From NCBI GenBank assembly GCA_964503235.1, contig CAZCZJ010000001.1, positions 5,851 through 69,850 of the forward strand: a stretch of 64,000 bases of DNA, in the 5' to 3' direction. Within the stretch, counting starts at the first letter, position 1. The number at the start of each line of letters is the position of its first letter. This document shows, piece by piece, positions 1,991 through 9,006 of this stretch. The position numbers were made by a program, and so were the translations under genes. Source of the DNA: an uncultured Dehalococcoidaceae bacterium (GTDB taxonomy: Bacteria; Chloroflexota; Dehalococcoidia; Dehalococcoidales; RBG-16-60-22). A model generated the notes under the pieces. The model had not been told where the DNA came from, searched no databases, and saw only the letters and a list, made by a program, of their open reading frames with translations.

Positions 1991-2057
1991 GGTAAAATAT
2001 TCCGGAGGTATCAGACTTTTTCAGAAATGTGGAAAACAGAAAATATGTCTCATATAC

Positions 2058-2104
2058 CTGTCATTGCGAGTCCTTTTATAGAAGGACGAAGCAATCCGTT
2101 CTCT
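2058..2104 (+). repeat. Hairpin repeat copy 1 (ctGTCATTGCGAG-[GTCCTT ttatag AAGGAC]-CGAAGCAATCCGTT), 13 nt downstream of the GIY-YIG stop
   Basis: Direct reading. The outer stem is ATTGC/GCAAT and the inner stem GTCCTT/AAGGAC. The same consensus occurs at 2435-2466 (inverted), 7490-7528 and 7544-7578 (inverted). Confidence 0.85.
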
Positions 2105-2117
2105 TTTAAATATCCCT

Positions 2118-2411
2118 CTAAATATGGTCGTAAATATCCAGCCAACCGGGATTCACCGATTCCACAAGTTGATTCTTCCTGGCTCTGGAACTACCTTTCA
2201 ATCGCTTCTCTCTTAAAATCGCATTTTCAGGGTCACTATATATTTCATAATACACGAGCTTATTAATATCGTATCTGGCTGTAAACCCTTTGATAAACTT
2301 ACTTTTATGTTCAAACACTCTTTTCTTTAAATTACTGGCCACTCCTATATACAAAGCGACGTTTGTCCTATTAGTCATAAAATACACATAATATTGTTTA
2401 TCAGATTTCAT
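2118..2411 (-). CDS. GIY-YIG nuclease family protein (small stand-alone, UPF0213-like)
   Basis: 97 aa starting MKSDKQYYVYFMTNRTNVALYIGVASNLKKRVFEHK...REKRLKG. It carries the GIY..YIG-type motif (YVY...YIG) and the conserved R/E/K positions of the family. Confidence 0.85.
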   Translation of the reverse strand: MKSDKQYYVYFMTNRTNVALYIGVASNLKKRVFEHKSKFIKGFTARYDINKLVYYEIYSDPENAILREKRLKGSSRARKNQLVESVNPGWLDIYDHI

Positions 2412-2434
2412 TATACTCTAATGTTTACAGGATC

Positions 2435-2466
2435 AACGGATTGCTTCGCTACGCTCGCAATGACTG
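2435..2466 (-). repeat. Hairpin repeat copy 2, inverted relative to copy 1, 23 nt upstream of the GIY-YIG start
   Basis: The reverse complement reads cagTCATTGCGAG-[CG tag CG]-AAGCAATCCGTT. It has the same outer stem and internal loop but a different, still self-pairing, inner stem. Confidence 0.8.
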
Positions 2467-2537
2467 AAATATTTCGTACGTATAGCATCGGTAATAAAGG
2501 GCAGCACTCCCTCCAGATTCTTATCCTATCTCTACGA

Positions 2538-3515
2538 CTATCCTTTTATCGGCTCCAACCCTGCTTCCAGTCGAGCGTCGTTGATATGAATCAGCACCGC
2601 CTTCTCGAGCGGCATGCAGGAAAACCCGAAATCATCGATAGCCTGCTTCATGCTCACCTTCCACGGTAATCCGAATTTACCCTCCGGGTCCATCATCGAG
2701 CGGTCGCCAAAGGATATATCCGCATCCGGTATATATTTCCTGATTACCTCAGCCATGTCCAGGGCACTCTGAGGCGGTCCGCCGACGTTATAGACAGGGT
2801 GAGGTGATGACGGAGCTTTTATAAGGATTCTGGTAAATTCGGCGAGGTCATCCGCGGAGACCAGCGAAGCAAGACCGCTACCATCCCCTTCCATAGAGAA
2901 TGGCTTGCCAACCGCACAATTCGAGGGCATATCCGACCAGTATTGTGCCGGGGAACGCCCGCCGTGCCCGTAACCGATAGTAGGTCGAACACCGGTGAAG
3001 TTCATGCCAAACTGCTGAGAATAGTCCGCGGCCATTATCTCAGCGTATTTTTTACAGACGGCATAAGAGTGGGTCGGATTCGTCTGGTCATCCTCGGTAA
3101 CTTCCCGGTCGCCGTACATAGCCTGAGGTCCGTACACCGTTTCCGAACTGGCGTAGATAACACGATTCGCTCCCATAATCTTGGCAGCTTCAAAAGAGTT
3201 ATTCATGCCGAGTACGTTCACTTTTGTCTGGAGTCGCGGATCGATTCGAACGCCACCGCCCACCATAATGAAAGCCCAGTTGATTACACTGTCGATGGAA
3301 TGGAGCTTCATCACGTTCATGATATCTTCTATCTGAGATACATCCCCGCGCACATAATGGAACTTATCAACATTCCCTGCGATAGTCTTTATAAACCACT
3401 CCGGGGGCGGCATAAGGTCCATAGATACCACGGTGACAATATCAGGGTCCTTACAGAGGGCAGCCGCAGTTTTCCTTCCGAAAAGTCCGCTGCCTCCCAA
3501 TACCAGTACATTCAT
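2538..3515 (-). CDS. NAD-dependent epimerase/dehydratase family protein (extended SDR)
   Basis: 325 aa. N-terminal Rossmann motif MNVLVLGGSGLFG, and YxxxK (YAVCKKY) in the expected position. Confidence 0.85.
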   Translation of the reverse strand: MNVLVLGGSGLFGRKTAAALCKDPDIVTVVSMDLMPPPEWFIKTIAGNVDKFHYVRGDVSQIEDIMNVMKLHSIDSVINWAFIMVGGGVRIDPRLQTKVNVLGMNNSFEAAKIMGANRVIYASSETVYGPQAMYGDREVTEDDQTNPTHSYAVCKKYAEIMAADYSQQFGMNFTGVRPTIGYGHGGRSPAQYWSDMPSNCAVGKPFSMEGDGSGLASLVSADDLAEFTRILIKAPSSPHPVYNVGGPPQSALDMAEVIRKYIPDADISFGDRSMMDPEGKFGLPWKVSMKQAIDDFGFSCMPLEKAVLIHINDARLEAGLEPIKG

Positions 3516-3567
3516 ATAATACCTCCTGAAATTATAAAGGTGAAAAGCTAAACGATTATAACACTTT

Positions 3568-3596
3568 TTGACAAGCTAGCGCACAGGGACTAAACT
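3568..3596 (+). promoter_or_regulatory. Sigma70-like promoter candidate (TTGACA-17 nt-TAAACT) for the SDR/thiolase operon
   Basis: TTGACA at 3568-3573, a 17-nt spacer, and TAAACT at 3591-3596, about 65 nt upstream of the ATG at 3661. Confidence 0.3.
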
Positions 3597-3660
3597 ATGT
3601 CAGAATACAAGAAATCAGCTTTAACCAGCCTGCAATCCTGTCATGTCTGGGGAGGTTCTT

Positions 3661-4443
3661 ATGCTATTGAAAGATAAGGTGGCTATCGTTACCGGGGGTG
3701 GTTACGGAATCGGCAGGGCAATCGCCCTCGCTTTCGCTAAAGAAGGGGCTGACGTGGTAGTGGCAGCGCGAACCGAATCAGCTCTCCAAGAAGTAGCCGG
3801 AGAAATCGAAAACCTTGGCAGGAAAAGCCTGGCGGTGAAAACCGACCTTTTAAAACCCGAAATGCCGTTGACTATGATAAAAAAAGCTCTGAGTGAATTC
3901 GGTAAAGTCGATATCCTGGTGAATAACTCCGGTGCCGAAGGGCCTATCGCTAACGTTGCCGAGATGGACTTGAAAGGATGGAACGACCTTCTGGCAGTAA
4001 ACCTTACCGGGGCTATGATTTGCTGTCGCTATGTCCTGAATAAAAGCATGATTCCCCGTCAGAGCGGGGCTATTATCAACGTTTCTTCCGCGGCGGGTAG
4101 AAGAGGACTCCCGACCAGAAGCGCCTACAGCTCTTCCAAGTTTGCCCTTATCGGCTTTACCCAGAGCCTGGCGAACGAGGTGGGACGATACGGTATCCGC
4201 GTCAACGCCATCGCCCCGGGGGCAGTCGAGGGTGAACGTCTCGAGAGGGTATTTAACATATCTGCCAAGAACCTAGGCATCACCTACGAGCAGGTGGTGG
4301 CCGGTTCCAACGCACGGTCGGCTCTCGGCAGGATGGTCAAACCCGAAGAAGTCGGTGACCTGGCGGTGTTTTTAGCGTCGGACAAATCCAGCGGTATTAC
4401 GGGGCAAACCATAAATATCGATGCCGGTGCCAACTTCAATTAA
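3661..4443 (+). CDS. SDR family oxidoreductase (3-oxoacyl-ACP reductase-like)
   Basis: TGGGYGIG glycine motif, NNSG, and YSSSK catalytic Tyr/Lys. The ATG at 3661 follows GGGGAGG and is preferred over the track start at 3643. Confidence 0.85.
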   Translation: MLLKDKVAIVTGGGYGIGRAIALAFAKEGADVVVAARTESALQEVAGEIENLGRKSLAVKTDLLKPEMPLTMIKKALSEFGKVDILVNNSGAEGPIANVAEMDLKGWNDLLAVNLTGAMICCRYVLNKSMIPRQSGAIINVSSAAGRRGLPTRSAYSSSKFALIGFTQSLANEVGRYGIRVNAIAPGAVEGERLERVFNISAKNLGITYEQVVAGSNARSALGRMVKPEEVGDLAVFLASDKSSGITGQTINIDAGANFN

Positions 4444-4445
4444 TC

Positions 4446-4826
4446 GTGATAGTAAAAAGGATTAATATGAATTTTATACAATCATTTATTCTCAAGGTTT
4501 ATCCTGTGGCAGTAGTCATTATCGTTCTGGCAGGAATCGGGGTTTTTATTTCGGCGTTCCTGGCTTCAGATATACAACTCCAGATAGCCCTGGGACTGGG
4601 CGGCGTGGGACTATTTTCTCTCGGGCCGATATTCATTAAACTTGCCCGGGATGCCAAGAAAGCACAGGAGAAACTCGACGCCATCATAGCCAAGCTGGAT
4701 GAACTCCAGCAGGAACTGCAAAAGAAAGAAGAACCTGGTAAATCAGGGGTCGCTATCGCTGATATTATCAATTCCAGTCTGAAATTCTACTCTGAATTCA
4801 AGGACAGGGAAAAGAAGGAGGAATGA
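4446..4826 (+). CDS. Small membrane protein with a C-terminal charged coiled-coil tail, function unknown
   Basis: Two hydrophobic segments are followed by KKAQEKLDAIIAKLDELQQELQKKEE. It sits in the operon between the SDR and the HMGCS-like gene. The start is uncertain (GTG 4446 or ATG 4467). Confidence 0.5.
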   Translation: MIVKRINMNFIQSFILKVYPVAVVIIVLAGIGVFISAFLASDIQLQIALGLGGVGLFSLGPIFIKLARDAKKAQEKLDAIIAKLDELQQELQKKEEPGKSGVAIADIINSSLKFYSEFKDREKKEE

Positions 4827-4883
4827 TTTCCTGACGCCCGGTATTATCTCCATTTCCATAATCCGGGAAAGGATTTATAAATT

Positions 4884-6302
4884 ATGGCAGGGATTTTATC
4901 ATACGGAGCCTATATACCTCTCCGCAGGCTGGGACCGGGCACCCAGGGATGGAATGCTACTGGCGAAAAATCCGTAGCCAACTGGGACGAAGACAGCCTG
5001 ACAATGGCGGTAGCCGCCGCTATAGATTGCCTGGGGGATATCGACCGGAAAACGGTTGACGGACTCTATTTCGCCACGACGACGCCGCCCTACGGTGAGA
5101 AGCTAGCCGCCACCACCGCAGCCTGGGCGACCGACCTGCGAACCGATATAGTAACCGCGGATATTACCGATTCGTTACGTGCCGGTACCGCCGCCTTGAG
5201 GATGGCGGCAGACACCGTGGCAGCGGGGACGGCGAAGCGTCTTCTGGTCACCACATCCGACCTGCGAACAGGTTCCGGAAACATGAATAATAATTTAGGC
5301 GATGGCGCCGCCGCTCTACTCATCGGGGATGGCGATGTAATAGCCACTATAGAAGCCGGTTACTCGCTGAATAACGAGTTGCTGGATGTGTGGCGTTCCA
5401 GCGGCGCCGGGAACGTACGCTCCTGGGAAGACCGCTTTGTCTTTGAACAAGGCTATCTAAAAGTGGTACCACAGGCTGTAAAAAGCTTCCTAGAAAAGAC
5501 CGGCATTTCGCTCAATGTCGTTAATAAGGCTATCCTCTACGGACCCGACTTGCGACGGCACCGCCAGATGGCGGGTATACTGGAACTAAAACCAGAGCAG
5601 GTGCAGGACCCCCTTTTCGATAAGTTGGGTAATACCGGCAATGCTTTCAGCCTGATGATGCTGGCAGCCGCCCTCGAAGACGCCCGACCGGGAGATAACA
5701 TACTACTGGTAAGCTATGGCGACGGCGCCGATATCCTCCTGCTGAAGGTAACCGATAAAATCAAAGATATGAAGGAAAGGTGGGGAATCAAGCGTAGTCT
5801 GGCCGCCAAAACGATTTTACCCAGCATCGGCGAATATAACGCTTACCGAGAGTTCGCCAACTCAGACCCTGAGGGATTCGGGGGGTCGTCGGCATCGGTT
5901 ATTGCCCGCGAACGTGACGCTATTTATAGTCTGCACGGCGTGAAATGCCTGACCTGCGGGACCGTCCAGTATCCACCCCAGAGAATATGCACCAACTGTC
6001 ATACCAAAGATAACTTTGAACCCTACAGCTTTGCTGATAAGAAAGGCAGGGTATTTACCTATACGCTGAAGTATGGCGGCGATATCCCGCCTTTCGCCCG
6101 CCCGGGAGTTGACACCATGGTTGATTTTAAAGGCGGCGGGCGGGCGCTTTTCGGGATGACCGACATGATAGCCGATGAAGTAAAAGTGGGCATGGACGTT
6201 GAAATGAGCTTTCGGACGCTGGGTTCAGGCGGGGGTATCCATAACTATTTCTGGAGATGTATGCCATCCCGAGAAAGCTGGCTGGCGAAGGAGGCCAAAT
6301 AG
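4884..6302 (+). CDS. HMG-CoA-synthase-like (thiolase-fold) domain fused to a C-terminal DUF35 zinc-ribbon/OB-fold domain
   Basis: 472 aa. The N-terminal ~340 aa have the HMGCS/KAS-III-like layout. The C-terminus has CLTCG...CTNCH (a CxxC...CxxC Zn ribbon) followed by an OB-fold-like region, typical of DUF35. Leu98 (5175-5177) occupies the nucleophile position. Confidence 0.8.
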   Translation: MAGILSYGAYIPLRRLGPGTQGWNATGEKSVANWDEDSLTMAVAAAIDCLGDIDRKTVDGLYFATTTPPYGEKLAATTAAWATDLRTDIVTADITDSLRAGTAALRMAADTVAAGTAKRLLVTTSDLRTGSGNMNNNLGDGAAALLIGDGDVIATIEAGYSLNNELLDVWRSSGAGNVRSWEDRFVFEQGYLKVVPQAVKSFLEKTGISLNVVNKAILYGPDLRRHRQMAGILELKPEQVQDPLFDKLGNTGNAFSLMMLAAALEDARPGDNILLVSYGDGADILLLKVTDKIKDMKERWGIKRSLAAKTILPSIGEYNAYREFANSDPEGFGGSSASVIARERDAIYSLHGVKCLTCGTVQYPPQRICTNCHTKDNFEPYSFADKKGRVFTYTLKYGGDIPPFARPGVDTMVDFKGGGRALFGMTDMIADEVKVGMDVEMSFRTLGSGGGIHNYFWRCMPSRESWLAKEAK

Positions 6303-7481
6303 ATGGATAGTATTAAAGATAAAATTGCTATCGTCGGGATGGGATGTACCAAGTTCGGCGAAAACTGGGACAAGAGCGCCGAGGACATGATGGTGGATGC
6401 CGCCTCGGAAGCCTGTGAGGACGCCGGGATAGAGCTTAAAGATATTCAAGCGGCCTGGTTCGGCACGACCCGCCTGGGAACCGCCGAACCCTGCGCCACC
6501 GCGCTTAAGCTGGACTATATACCGGTTACCAGGGTGGAGAATTTATGCGCCACCGCCACCGAAGCCCTTCGAAATGCCTGTTTTGGTATTGCGTCAGGCG
6601 TGTATAATGTCGTTCTGGCTATCGGCGTTGAAAAGCTCAAGGACCAGGGCATGGGCGGTCTGGGCACGGTAAGCGGCGCCGGGGGCAACGGCACTCTGGA
6701 ATGGGGTATGTCAGCGGCGATGTTCTTCGCCAGAATGGCTACCCGATACATGAACCACTACCGCTTGAGTTACGAAGAATTTAAGCAAATCCTGGCAAAA
6801 ATCTCGGTAAAGAACCACCACAATGGCTCTCTGAATCCCCGGGCCCATTTCCAGAGAGAGATAACCGAAGAGCAAGCCATCAACGCCCCCATGGTGTCCT
6901 GGCCTCTGGGACTTTATGACGCCTGCGGTGTTAGCGACGGCTCGGCGGCGGCTATTCTCTGTCGGGCGGATATGGCAAAAAACTTCCGCGACGACTATGT
7001 CCTAGTCAAGGGACTGGGGCTGGCGGTAGGTGCGCGCCAGGGATACCTGCAGCCTGACTACGACATGGTTCACATGGAGGAGAGCGTACGCGCTGCGAAG
7101 CAAGCCTATGACATGGCGGGTATCAAAGACCCCTTTAAAGAGATAGACCTTGCCGAGGTGCACGACTGTTTCACCATCACCGAACTGGTTATCACGGAAG
7201 ACCTGGGATTCTGTCCGCGGGGTAAAGGACCGGAATACGTTAAAAACGGCACCTTTAAACTGGACGGCGAACTGGCGGTCAATCCCGACGGTGGACTGAA
7301 AAGCTTCGGGCACCCCATCGGCGCCAGCGGCCTGAGAATGATTTATGAAATATACAAGCAGATGCAGGGAAAGGCCGGCCCACGCCAGCGGAAAAACCCC
7401 AGCCTGGGCTTGACCCATAATTTTGGCTTGAATCCGGGCAGCGGCATCGGCAGCGTGGCGATATTGGGGCAGAGGGACTAA
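6303..7481 (+). CDS. Thiolase, SCP-x / archaeal acetoacetyl-CoA thiolase type
   Basis: 392 aa. IAIVGMGCTKFG N-terminus, nucleophile context VENLCATATEAL (Cys82), HDCFT and GHPIGASG motifs. The start directly abuts the upstream stop (TAGATG). Confidence 0.85.
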   Translation: MDSIKDKIAIVGMGCTKFGENWDKSAEDMMVDAASEACEDAGIELKDIQAAWFGTTRLGTAEPCATALKLDYIPVTRVENLCATATEALRNACFGIASGVYNVVLAIGVEKLKDQGMGGLGTVSGAGGNGTLEWGMSAAMFFARMATRYMNHYRLSYEEFKQILAKISVKNHHNGSLNPRAHFQREITEEQAINAPMVSWPLGLYDACGVSDGSAAAILCRADMAKNFRDDYVLVKGLGLAVGARQGYLQPDYDMVHMEESVRAAKQAYDMAGIKDPFKEIDLAEVHDCFTITELVITEDLGFCPRGKGPEYVKNGTFKLDGELAVNPDGGLKSFGHPIGASGLRMIYEIYKQMQGKAGPRQRKNPSLGLTHNFGLNPGSGIGSVAILGQRD

Positions 7482-7489
7482 TATTTTAA

Positions 7490-7578
7490 GTCATTGCGAG
7501 TCCTTCCGCTGAAGGACGAAGCAATCCGCTTTCTCTCAGGGGACGGATTACTTCGGGCGTAGCCCTCGTAATGACAGG
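7490..7578. repeat. Inverted doublet of the GIY-YIG-associated hairpin repeat (copies 3a and 3b) with no cargo gene
   Basis: 7490-7528 reads GTCATTGCGAG-[TCCTT ccgctg AAGGA]-CGAAGCAATCCG. The reverse complement of 7544-7578 reads cctGTCATTACGAG-[GGC tac GCC]-CGAAGTAATCCG. About 15 nt separate them, in the intergenic gap between the thiolase and CoA-transferase genes. Confidence 0.85.
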
Positions 7579-7601: not shown

Positions 7602-8339
7602 ATGATAAATAAAGTCGTCGGCAGCTTCGATGAAGCGGTAGCCGATATTTTCGACGGTGCCGTTATCCTCATGGGCGGCTTCGGGCCCGCCAACGGAACA
7701 CCGAGCAATTTATTAAGAGCTCTGGCCAGACAGGGTGCCAGCCAATTGACACTCGCCGCCAATACACCAGGATACGGTCGTGCACCGGAGGGTTCCAAGC
7801 CCTTCCGTAAGACTCCACCCAACTATGATGACGGCGGATTGCTGATACAGTCCGGTCAGGTAAAGAAGGTTATCTGCGCTTTCCCCGGTATGAACCGACC
7901 CGGCATGACCGCCCCGCTGCACCAGAAATGGGAAACCGGCGAGCTGGAAGTAGAGATGGTACCCCAGGGTACCCTGGCGGAAAGAATCAGGGCGGCCAAG
8001 GCGGGAATCGGGGCTTTCTATATTCCCACGGGTGCAGGAACGGTTATGGAGAATGGTAAGGAGAAGCGTGTTATTGACGACCGCGAATATATCCTCGAAT
8101 ATCCCCTTAAAGCTGACTTTGCCCTGGTAAGGGCGTATAAAGCCGACCGCTACGGCAATTGCGTTTATCAGGGAACCTCCCGCAACTTCAATCCTGTCAT
8201 GGCGGGTGCGGCCAAGGTAACCATCATCGAGGTTGATAAACTGGTAGAGCTGGGCAGCCTCGACCCGGAAGTAATCGTCACCCCTGGTATCTATGTCGAT
8301 CGCATAGCCGTCAGAGAAAACGGTAGGAAAGGGGCCTGA
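7602..8339 (+). CDS. 3-oxoacid CoA-transferase, subunit A
   Basis: 245 aa. MINKVVGSFDEAVADIFDGAVILMGGFG is a typical family I CoA-transferase A N-terminus. RBS AGGAGG upstream. Confidence 0.9.
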   Translation: MINKVVGSFDEAVADIFDGAVILMGGFGPANGTPSNLLRALARQGASQLTLAANTPGYGRAPEGSKPFRKTPPNYDDGGLLIQSGQVKKVICAFPGMNRPGMTAPLHQKWETGELEVEMVPQGTLAERIRAAKAGIGAFYIPTGAGTVMENGKEKRVIDDREYILEYPLKADFALVRAYKADRYGNCVYQGTSRNFNPVMAGAAKVTIIEVDKLVELGSLDPEVIVTPGIYVDRIAVRENGRKGA

Positions 8340-8340
8340 G

Positions 8341-9006
8341 ATGAAAGAAAGACTTGACGAACAGACGATGGCTCTCAGAGTGGCTAAAGAGTTCCGGGAC
8401 GGCATGATAATCAACCTGGGCTTCGGTATTCCCACGCTGGCTGCTAATTTCATACCCGAGGATATCGAGGTTATTTTCCACGCTGAAAACGGCTGCCTCG
8501 GCTATGGTCCCATGCCCACGACGGAAGAGGAAGAGGATTTTCACCTGGTGAACGCCACGGGTACCTTCGCCACACCCAAGCCCGGAATGTGCTTCTTTGA
8601 CCACGCCGACTCTTTTTCCATGATAAGGGGCAGGCACATCGATTTATGTGTCCTCGGCGGTTTACAGGTATCGGAGAAGGGCGATCTCGCCAACTGGGCA
8701 ACCGGAGTCGGCCGGCCGGGTAACATCGGCGGCGCCATGGACCTGGCGTTCGGAGCATATCACCTCATTGTCGTGATGACTCATACCACTAAAAATAACG
8801 AACCCAAATTGCTCAAAAAATGCACCTATCCGCTGACGGCGCCGCGCTGTGTGAATCTTATCGTTACTGATATCTCGGTAATTGAAGTAACATCTGACGG
8901 TTTGCTTCTAAAAGAGACCGCGCCTGGATGGGAAGTTGAGGACGTCCAGGACATAACCGAACCCGAATTAATAATCGCTCCCGACCTCAAACAAATGGCA
9001 CTGTAA
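8341..9006 (+). CDS. 3-oxoacid CoA-transferase, subunit B
   Basis: 221 aa with the (S)ENG-type catalytic glutamate motif (HAENGCLGYGP). It starts 1 nt after the subunit A stop. Confidence 0.9.
   Translation: MKERLDEQTMALRVAKEFRDGMIINLGFGIPTLAANFIPEDIEVIFHAENGCLGYGPMPTTEEEEDFHLVNATGTFATPKPGMCFFDHADSFSMIRGRHIDLCVLGGLQVSEKGDLANWATGVGRPGNIGGAMDLAFGAYHLIVVMTHTTKNNEPKLLKKCTYPLTAPRCVNLIVTDISVIEVTSDGLLLKETAPGWEVEDVQDITEPELIIAPDLKQMAL

Follow-up and report, generated by a model that had tools for sequence, protein, structure and literature searches.

The locus described here raises the question of why a small nuclease gene should sit between two inverted copies of a structured DNA hairpin, with a gene-less pair of the same hairpins some 5 kb away. 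It lies in a 64-kb stretch of contig CAZCZJ010000001.1 (positions 5,851 to 69,850 of the forward strand) from an uncultured Dehalococcoidaceae bacterium of the phylum Chloroflexota, hereafter the window, whose single GIY-YIG gene encodes a protein of 97 aa. An earlier note on this DNA had proposed that the gene and the hairpins form one system, for which its writer knew of no characterized GIY-YIG equivalent. The proposal holds, but such a pair has been characterized both biochemically and genetically in the Ssn nuclease and its hairpin repeats (Chenal et al., Nat Commun 2025, PMC11893778), and the window protein is a clear homolog of that nuclease. Judged from sequence, the 97-aa protein is very probably (about 85%) a member of the Ssn family and the four hairpins its cognate repeats, or SRMs, of a subtype designated here ATTGC after its outer stem. 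Both the gene unit and the gene-less pair at a distance of 5 kb are genuine and form parts of one Chloroflexota example of the Ssn/SRM system, which is extended to this phylum. A nuclease-repeat partnership that was published only in 2025 has been rediscovered from raw sequence; the novelty is modest and consists of the ATTGC subtype, which is missed by the published pattern, and of comparative evidence of insertion.

The reference member of the family is the SsnA protein of N. meningitidis, which has 94 aa and a single GIY-YIG domain (cd10448). It binds the hairpin repeat NTS (CGTCATTCCCGCGMAVGCGGGAATCYRG) as single-stranded DNA only and in one orientation only, and cuts a few nucleotides upstream of the hairpin while leaving duplex DNA and RNA untouched and RNA unbound (PMC11893778). 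Cleavage requires the three bases before the palindrome and binding requires the C after it, the stem sequence matters while the loop is replaceable, and each of the substitutions Y6A, Y17A and E64A abolishes cleavage (PMC11893778). The window protein has the same build and much the same length (single-domain proteins of about 94-97 aa), with residues 6-79 matching the Pfam GIY-YIG domain PF01541 at E=1.4e-14, no second domain, and sub-threshold GIY-YIG matches only in NCBIfam. A tblastn search of N. gonorrhoeae with the window protein gives a single match (E=2e-18, 90% coverage), and BLASTP against the 94-aa SsnA ortholog of that species, an open reading frame with canonical NTS repeats on its flanks, gives 44% identity over 89 aa at E=3e-28. 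The catalytic Tyr, Tyr and Glu are shared, as Y9, Y20 and E67 of the window protein align with Y6, Y17 and E64 of SsnA and are invariant among 18-19 homologs. Measured on the gonococcal ortholog, the similarity lies within the limits taken for Ssn membership in the published work (E<1e-10 over at least 75% of the length), the protein is a single-domain GIY-YIG protein shorter than about 150 aa, and its gene has hairpins on both sides within 500 bp, at 25 nt upstream and 19 nt downstream.

The earlier label of the protein as UPF0213-like does not stand. A predicted structure of moderate confidence finds its best matches among small GIY-YIG domains, namely UPF0213/YhbQ-type proteins (1zg2) and Slx1, so that the fold is alike, but the similarity in sequence is marginal, with only E=0.17 against the UPF0213 structure 1zg2 (BH0048), and a strict UPF0213-like identity was rejected on this value. 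UPF0213/YhbQ and Slx1 are moreover CDD families distinct from Ssn (PMC11893778). No Ssn structure was found in the PDB.

All four hairpins reported earlier are confirmed, with slightly tighter ends (Table 1), and their general form is Y-GTCATTGCGAG-(variable stem-loop)-CGAAGCAATC-Y. Each copy folds as had been claimed, into an ATTGC/GCAAT outer stem that is compensated in copy 3b, an asymmetric internal loop of GA versus GAA, a closing G-C pair and an inner stem of variable sequence that always pairs. The 12-mer of the 3′ half-site, CGAAGCAATCCG, occurs four times in the window with at most one mismatch, compared to an expectation of 0.34, and four occurrences were reached in none of 100 shuffles. 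A covariance model built on 49 copies was run over the 64 kb with filters off; the four copies reach 36-46 bits (E 1e-8 to 2e-6), and no further copy is found. As the next-best match has only 10.5 bits (E=2), the window contains exactly four. Copy 2 stands 5′ of the ssn gene in sense orientation, and copy 1 stands 3′ of it, antisense. The outward-facing arrangement around the gene is as described before, but the unit measures 405 bp rather than the roughly 409 bp given for it. The second pair, separated by 15 nt as had been estimated, falls between a thiolase gene (6303-7481) and the CoA-transferase A gene (7602-8339), and this doublet represents both arms of the unit, dispersed without the gene. 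A search of Rfam at gathering and at permissive thresholds, covering the window and seven repeat-rich loci, matched no family, and a known RNA-family identity for the hairpins was dropped for this reason.

Table 1. Positions of the ssn gene, its hairpins and the associated blocks in the window
Feature	Position	Strand	Details
ssn gene	2118-2411	-	single-domain GIY-YIG nuclease, probably of the Ssn family, 97 aa; Pfam and homology to SsnA ortholog
Hairpin copy 1	2060-2098	+	inner stem TCCTT/AAGGA; covariance model 46 bits, E=1.1e-8
Hairpin copy 2	2437-2464	-	minimal core GCGTAGC; covariance model 37.8 bits, E=9e-7
Hairpin copy 3a	7490-7528	+	inner stem of copy 1, other loop; covariance model 41.1 bits
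Hairpin copy 3b	7544-7575	-	outer stem ATTAC/GTAAT; covariance model 36.2 bits
Hairpin-ssn-hairpin unit, 405 bp	2060-2464	-	GTCATT ends outward; layout matched in 33 homolog units
Gene-less outward-facing doublet	7490-7575	.	15-nt spacer at 7529-7543
Block of about 484 nt without counterpart in syntenic relatives	1991-2474	.	unit with a further 69 nt to its left and 10 nt to its right; L325/L324 alignment

The relationship between these hairpins and the published repeat is one of shared ends and different stems. The NTS and the ATTGC subtype have in common a Y-GTCATT 5′ end and an AATC-Y 3′ end; between these, the NTS is a near-perfect ATTCCCGCG...CGCGGGAAT palindrome, whereas the window subtype reads ATTGC-GAG-(variable inner hairpin)-CGAA-GCAAT with its asymmetric GA/GAA loop. 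The ATTGC subtype has the features by which an SRM-type repeat is recognized, namely an oriented hairpin with GTC before and C after the palindrome and a free loop. All copies collected have the GTC and the 3′ C, and a pyrimidine occupies position -1 in 93% of them and position +1 in 97%. The outer stem keeps its sequence within the subtype instead of covarying, and compensated outer stems appear only between subtypes. A conserved outer stem combined with a free inner part fits the published findings that the stem matters and the loop is dispensable.

The evidence that ties the hairpins to the gene comes from a set of 81 loci encoding proteins 44-75% identical to the window protein. Strictly matching hairpins lie within 150 bp on both sides of the gene in 36 of the 81 and on one side only in a further 20, and the remaining 25 loci carry mostly variant hairpins of like build, among them GTCGTTGC..., ...CGTGGCAATC, ATTCC/GGAAT, ATTCCGGC-GAAA-GCCGGAAT, ATCCCGAA... 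and ATTCT/AGAAT. Wherever two flanking hairpins are readable, both ends of a unit share one variant. A general hairpin finder detects the layout of the window, with the upstream hairpin in sense and the downstream one in antisense orientation, in 44 of the 81 loci, which bears out the proposal that hairpins and gene are one system. Hairpins number 8.4 per kb up to 150 bp from the homologs and 0.84 per kb at more than 300 bp, with 200 hits near the genes compared to about 10 in shuffled sequence. These association frequencies match those of the published survey, in which a related motif lies near 71% of homologs and on both sides of 42%; the same survey finds an Ssn homolog in 81% of the genomes that contain over 200 motifs (PMC11893778). 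The subtype is abundant in many phyla and escapes the published pattern, and some of the roughly 29% of ssn homologs that were reported as motif-less may carry it.

The 33 strictly matched units are laid out as in the window, with sizes of about 353-547 bp. In most of them, the upstream hairpin is separated from the start codon by a 15-35 nt spacer, which often holds a TATAAT or TGnTAnAAT box, and the stop codon comes 0-2 nt from the downstream hairpin; outside of GTCATT...AATGAC, the sequence is unrelated between loci. A sigma-70 promoter scan upstream of the window ssn gene found nothing convincing on the gene strand. Dense hairpin clusters surround some ssn genes. When loci are instead selected by their hairpins, an ssn-family hidden Markov model finds a neighboring gene at none of the 120 viral loci and at one of the 120 genome loci listed, the latter from Planctomycetota and with a layout exactly as in the window. 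The gene-hairpin association is strong from the gene side and invisible from the hairpin side.

The hairpin family itself is widespread. An exact-pattern scan matched at least 120 contigs of a viral collection and at least 120 contigs of a collection with one genome per species, where the matches listed include Alpha-, Gamma- and Deltaproteobacteria, Bacteroidota, Chloroflexota, Cyanobacteria, Patescibacteria, Zixibacteria, Planctomycetota, Sporomusa and Helicobacter. The IMG/VR contigs (more than 120, L003-L122) carry one to six ATTGC-subtype hairpins each, and almost none of them encodes an ssn homolog; such viral elements are potential targets if Ssn cuts single-stranded sites of this kind. 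Pooling all loci, the invariant halves enclose 264 distinct sequences. GCGAAGC, GCGCAGC, GCGTAGC and GCGGAGC are the most frequent cores, and a second class adds a further tandem G.A/A.G step; sequences of the GCGNAGC type are classic stable DNA mini-hairpins, which, like the empty Rfam search, speaks for DNA over RNA as the form in which the hairpins act.

Selection on structure rather than on sequence had been argued in the earlier note from the four copies, and the covariation of the inner stem persists when more copies are aligned. Over 49 copies, four of the five inner pairs change on both sides, with 48 cells compared to 17 in shuffles, a count reached in none of 500 shuffles, and sliding the partner columns lowers inner pairing from 85% to 15-51%. 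Over the 150 best hits of the covariance model, all five inner pairs change on both sides, with 111 cells compared to 31. Inverted doublets and an intergenic bias, which the earlier note had proposed to count, are both seen: of 87 pairs of adjacent copies, 59 are outward-facing (+,-) doublets whose gap has a median of 24-26 nt, making the gene-less outward doublet the dominant dispersed form, and only 44-46% of the hairpins lie inside long open frames versus 83% of random positions. Pairing of a long with a short arm within doublets is not above chance (32 observed, 29 expected). The dispersal of gene-less, mostly intergenic repeats beside a gene framed by inverted hairpins is also how the Ssn/NTS system presents itself. 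Head-to-tail arrays occur as well, with four hairpins at a 33-bp period in L048 (2696-2818); arrays or dense clusters are present also in L112, L255, L257/L259 and L314.

Comparison with related genomes bears on how the unit came to its present site, and the relatives do differ in its presence. In two relative contigs whose cupin is 82% and 89% identical to that of the window, the order transketolase-cupin-epimerase is kept, and the gap between cupin and epimerase is 61-70 nt with a plain terminator-like hairpin (L325, L324) versus 547 nt in the window. The orthologous site holds the unit in the window and none in L324, L325 and L326, which indicates that the hairpin-ssn-hairpin unit entered the cupin-epimerase intergenic site as a block. 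The 69 nt to the left of the unit (1991-2059) are also absent from the syntenic relatives and contain no recognizable hairpin. The site of the window's ATTGC-type doublet differs in a 10-kb relative contig (Ga0494804_0000872, L329). Its thiolase/CoA-transferase junction (6885-6930) carries an NTS-type (ATTCCC) hairpin, CGTCATTCCCACGAAAGCGGGAATCCAGG, with one mismatch to the published NTS, together with a truncated partner; this junction was either hit twice or had its hairpin subtype replaced in place. Further along, at 7683-8078 and between CoA-transferase A and B, L329 has a gene for a 111-aa GIY-YIG protein, 37% identical to gonococcal SsnA, that is flanked by inverted copies of a different hairpin family (loop GAGCTTGTCGA) and has TATAAT just before its ATG. 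At the matching position of the window (8337-8341), no insertion is present and CoA-transferase A and B are adjacent. Polymorphisms of this kind bear on a question left open in the published work, whether the units are mobile now or were so once. A literature search found no account of the ATTGC subtype, of insertion polymorphism, or of later work on Ssn mobility or structure.

Several points weigh against assigning the window locus to the Ssn/SRM system. The window protein and the ATTGC subtype are known from their sequences alone, and the homology was measured against the N. gonorrhoeae ortholog rather than the N. meningitidis protein CAX49033.1 itself. The copy number is low, with four hairpins of which two are the flanks of the ssn gene, and the density is low also relative to the Ssn/NTS system; in 291 kb of metagenome ssn loci the covariance model has 323 hits versus the four of the 64-kb window. 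The published SRM pattern, HGTCWYN(0-2)YYVSBRHN(0-5)WNVSBRGN(0-2)RNCYNB, does detect the canonical NTS but matches none of the four window copies and none of 534 hairpins of the subtype, and membership among the SRMs rests as a consequence on architecture and on the association with homologs. The topology is the opposite at two places, as the hairpin ends face outward in the window and inward around the gonococcal ssnA (L330, 455-482 and 877-905) and around P0102, a homolog widespread in Dehalococcoidales with an antisense hairpin upstream and a sense hairpin downstream (L331-L340, e.g., 2451-2490 and 2822-2861 in L334). The layout rule is thus not universal.

If the Ssn assignment is correct, the mode of action can be sketched by analogy with the Neisseria and Wolbachia enzymes. 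The 97-aa protein would bind the folded hairpin in single-stranded DNA only, and only on the GTCATT...AATC strand, reading the GTC before the palindrome, the sequence of the outer stem and the C after it while ignoring the inner loop, and would cut at a distance of about 3-4 nt on the 5′ side of the GTC. Where the hairpins face outward, the predicted cuts would lie immediately beyond the two ends of a unit or doublet, one per strand; where they face inward, as at P0102 and the gonococcal gene, the cuts would separate the hairpins from the gene. Every new pair of Ssn and hairpin would be a candidate site-specific single-strand DNA cutter of new specificity, which is the biotechnological interest stated for the family.

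For the role of the system in its Dehalococcoidia-like host, two options are live: the system may control single-stranded DNA that enters the cell or becomes exposed, or the repeats may propagate themselves. The former would make Ssn and its repeats a domesticated host function, in which single strands are cut at marked sites so as to limit recombination of incoming DNA or to process exposed strands, and it may be entertained tentatively. The only role demonstrated in the family, restriction of incoming single-stranded DNA during transformation, is of this kind, as an SsnA knockout raises transformation by NTS-bearing DNA five-fold and the effect is lost with a mutated NTS (PMC11893778). Strong conservation of the catalytic residues and stable inheritance of homologs at fixed loci point the same way; P0102 keeps one GcpE-NUDIX setting throughout the 10 contigs listed (24 were read), each of which has its own sample or assembly accession. 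Just four hairpins in 64 kb speak against such a function, as does the fact that those of the window bracket no obvious protected gene besides ssn. The fixed position of P0102 counts against self-propagation, in which the unit would be a selfish mobile element whose GIY-YIG nuclease drives its spread by single-stranded transposition or break-induced copying, with the doublets as non-autonomous derivatives of the MITE or REPIN kind. That alternative is doubtful, for all that the Ssn authors themselves raised the idea (PMC11893778). In its favor, the unit is small (about 360-410 bp), sharply bounded and set in flanks that are unrelated between loci, it is absent from its site in syntenic relatives, one variant occupies both of its ends, and the doublets share its outward topology. 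The L329 unit sits between operon genes of the overlapping type where the window has none, and L252 and L294 share a 349-nt unit at 89% identity in otherwise unrelated sequence, the only such pair among the metagenome loci.

Against mobility of this kind, the target-site duplications that the earlier note had proposed to look for are not seen over the 33 units, where the mean length of the longest direct k-mer common to both 15-nt flanks is at chance level (3.24, compared to 3.36 in shuffled pairings). Inverted complementarity of the same outer flanks is slightly above that of shuffled pairings (4.06 versus 3.51, about 3 sd), as if the inverted repeat continued for a few bases past GTCATT or the units tended to lie in larger palindromes. 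No near-identical units in different contexts were found among the metagenome loci, highly similar gene pairs are mostly syntenic (L260, L268 and L278; L249/L252), and most hairpin loci have no ssn gene nearby. A DNA transposase of the GIY-YIG type is not known either. That Ssn mobilizes the repeats is unproven, and the bolder version, in which the unit is an autonomous element moved by a hydrolytic GIY-YIG single-strand nuclease that belongs to no known transposase class, and the pan-bacterial ATTGC doublets are its offspring, is more doubtful still; if true, it would constitute a new mechanistic class of prokaryotic transposable element, with a 21-base conserved hairpin spread through most bacterial phyla. 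Very improbable is the remaining alternative, that the hairpins act in RNA or transcription as terminators, mRNA stabilizers or attenuators and are close to ssn only by coincidence. The intergenic bias would suit it, as would a ribosome-binding-like sequence that follows some copies and a G-U-compatible GTTGC outer stem in some upstream copies. It is opposed by the empty Rfam search, by SsnA not binding RNA (PMC11893778), by the 44 of 81 loci in which hairpins and gene keep an exact geometry and strand order, and by conservation of the sequence across phyla without a shared RNA partner. The -10-like box often found between the upstream hairpin and the start codon would place that hairpin outside the mRNA and is a further argument against it.

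The assignment to Ssn can be set beside other known systems. The analogy with REP and RAYT drawn in the earlier note is apt, and the authors of the Ssn study made the same one, likening the repeat-gene-repeat layout to an insertion sequence as well (PMC11893778). In the REP/REPIN-RAYT system, as in the window, one small nuclease gene stands between inverted hairpins and gene-less inverted doublets occur besides; recognition of a folded single-stranded hairpin and cutting beside it would be alike for ssn by analogy. RAYT is an IS200/IS605-like Y1 HUH tyrosine enzyme with a covalent intermediate, whereas the window protein is a GIY-YIG nuclease of the hydrolytic type, and a given REP family stays within a species or genus, whereas the window hairpin keeps 21 identical bases across phyla. 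The free-standing homing endonucleases I-TevI and Seg of T4 share the GIY-YIG catalytic domain and a possible selfish-gene lifestyle, but unlike the window unit they have a separate DNA-binding domain, make double-stranded cuts and are without flanking hairpins.

Names given to homologs of the window proteins place the organism in Chloroflexota, close to Dehalococcoidales. The surroundings of the unit and the doublet in the window are ordinary metabolic genes, encoding a transketolase, a cupin-like protein, an epimerase, a short-chain dehydrogenase, a thiolase and CoA-transferase subunits. Among the records used for comparison, NZ_CP119140.1 and NZ_CP119142.1 (L330) are 2.17-Mb N. gonorrhoeae sequences that are labeled as plasmids and are evidently chromosomes.

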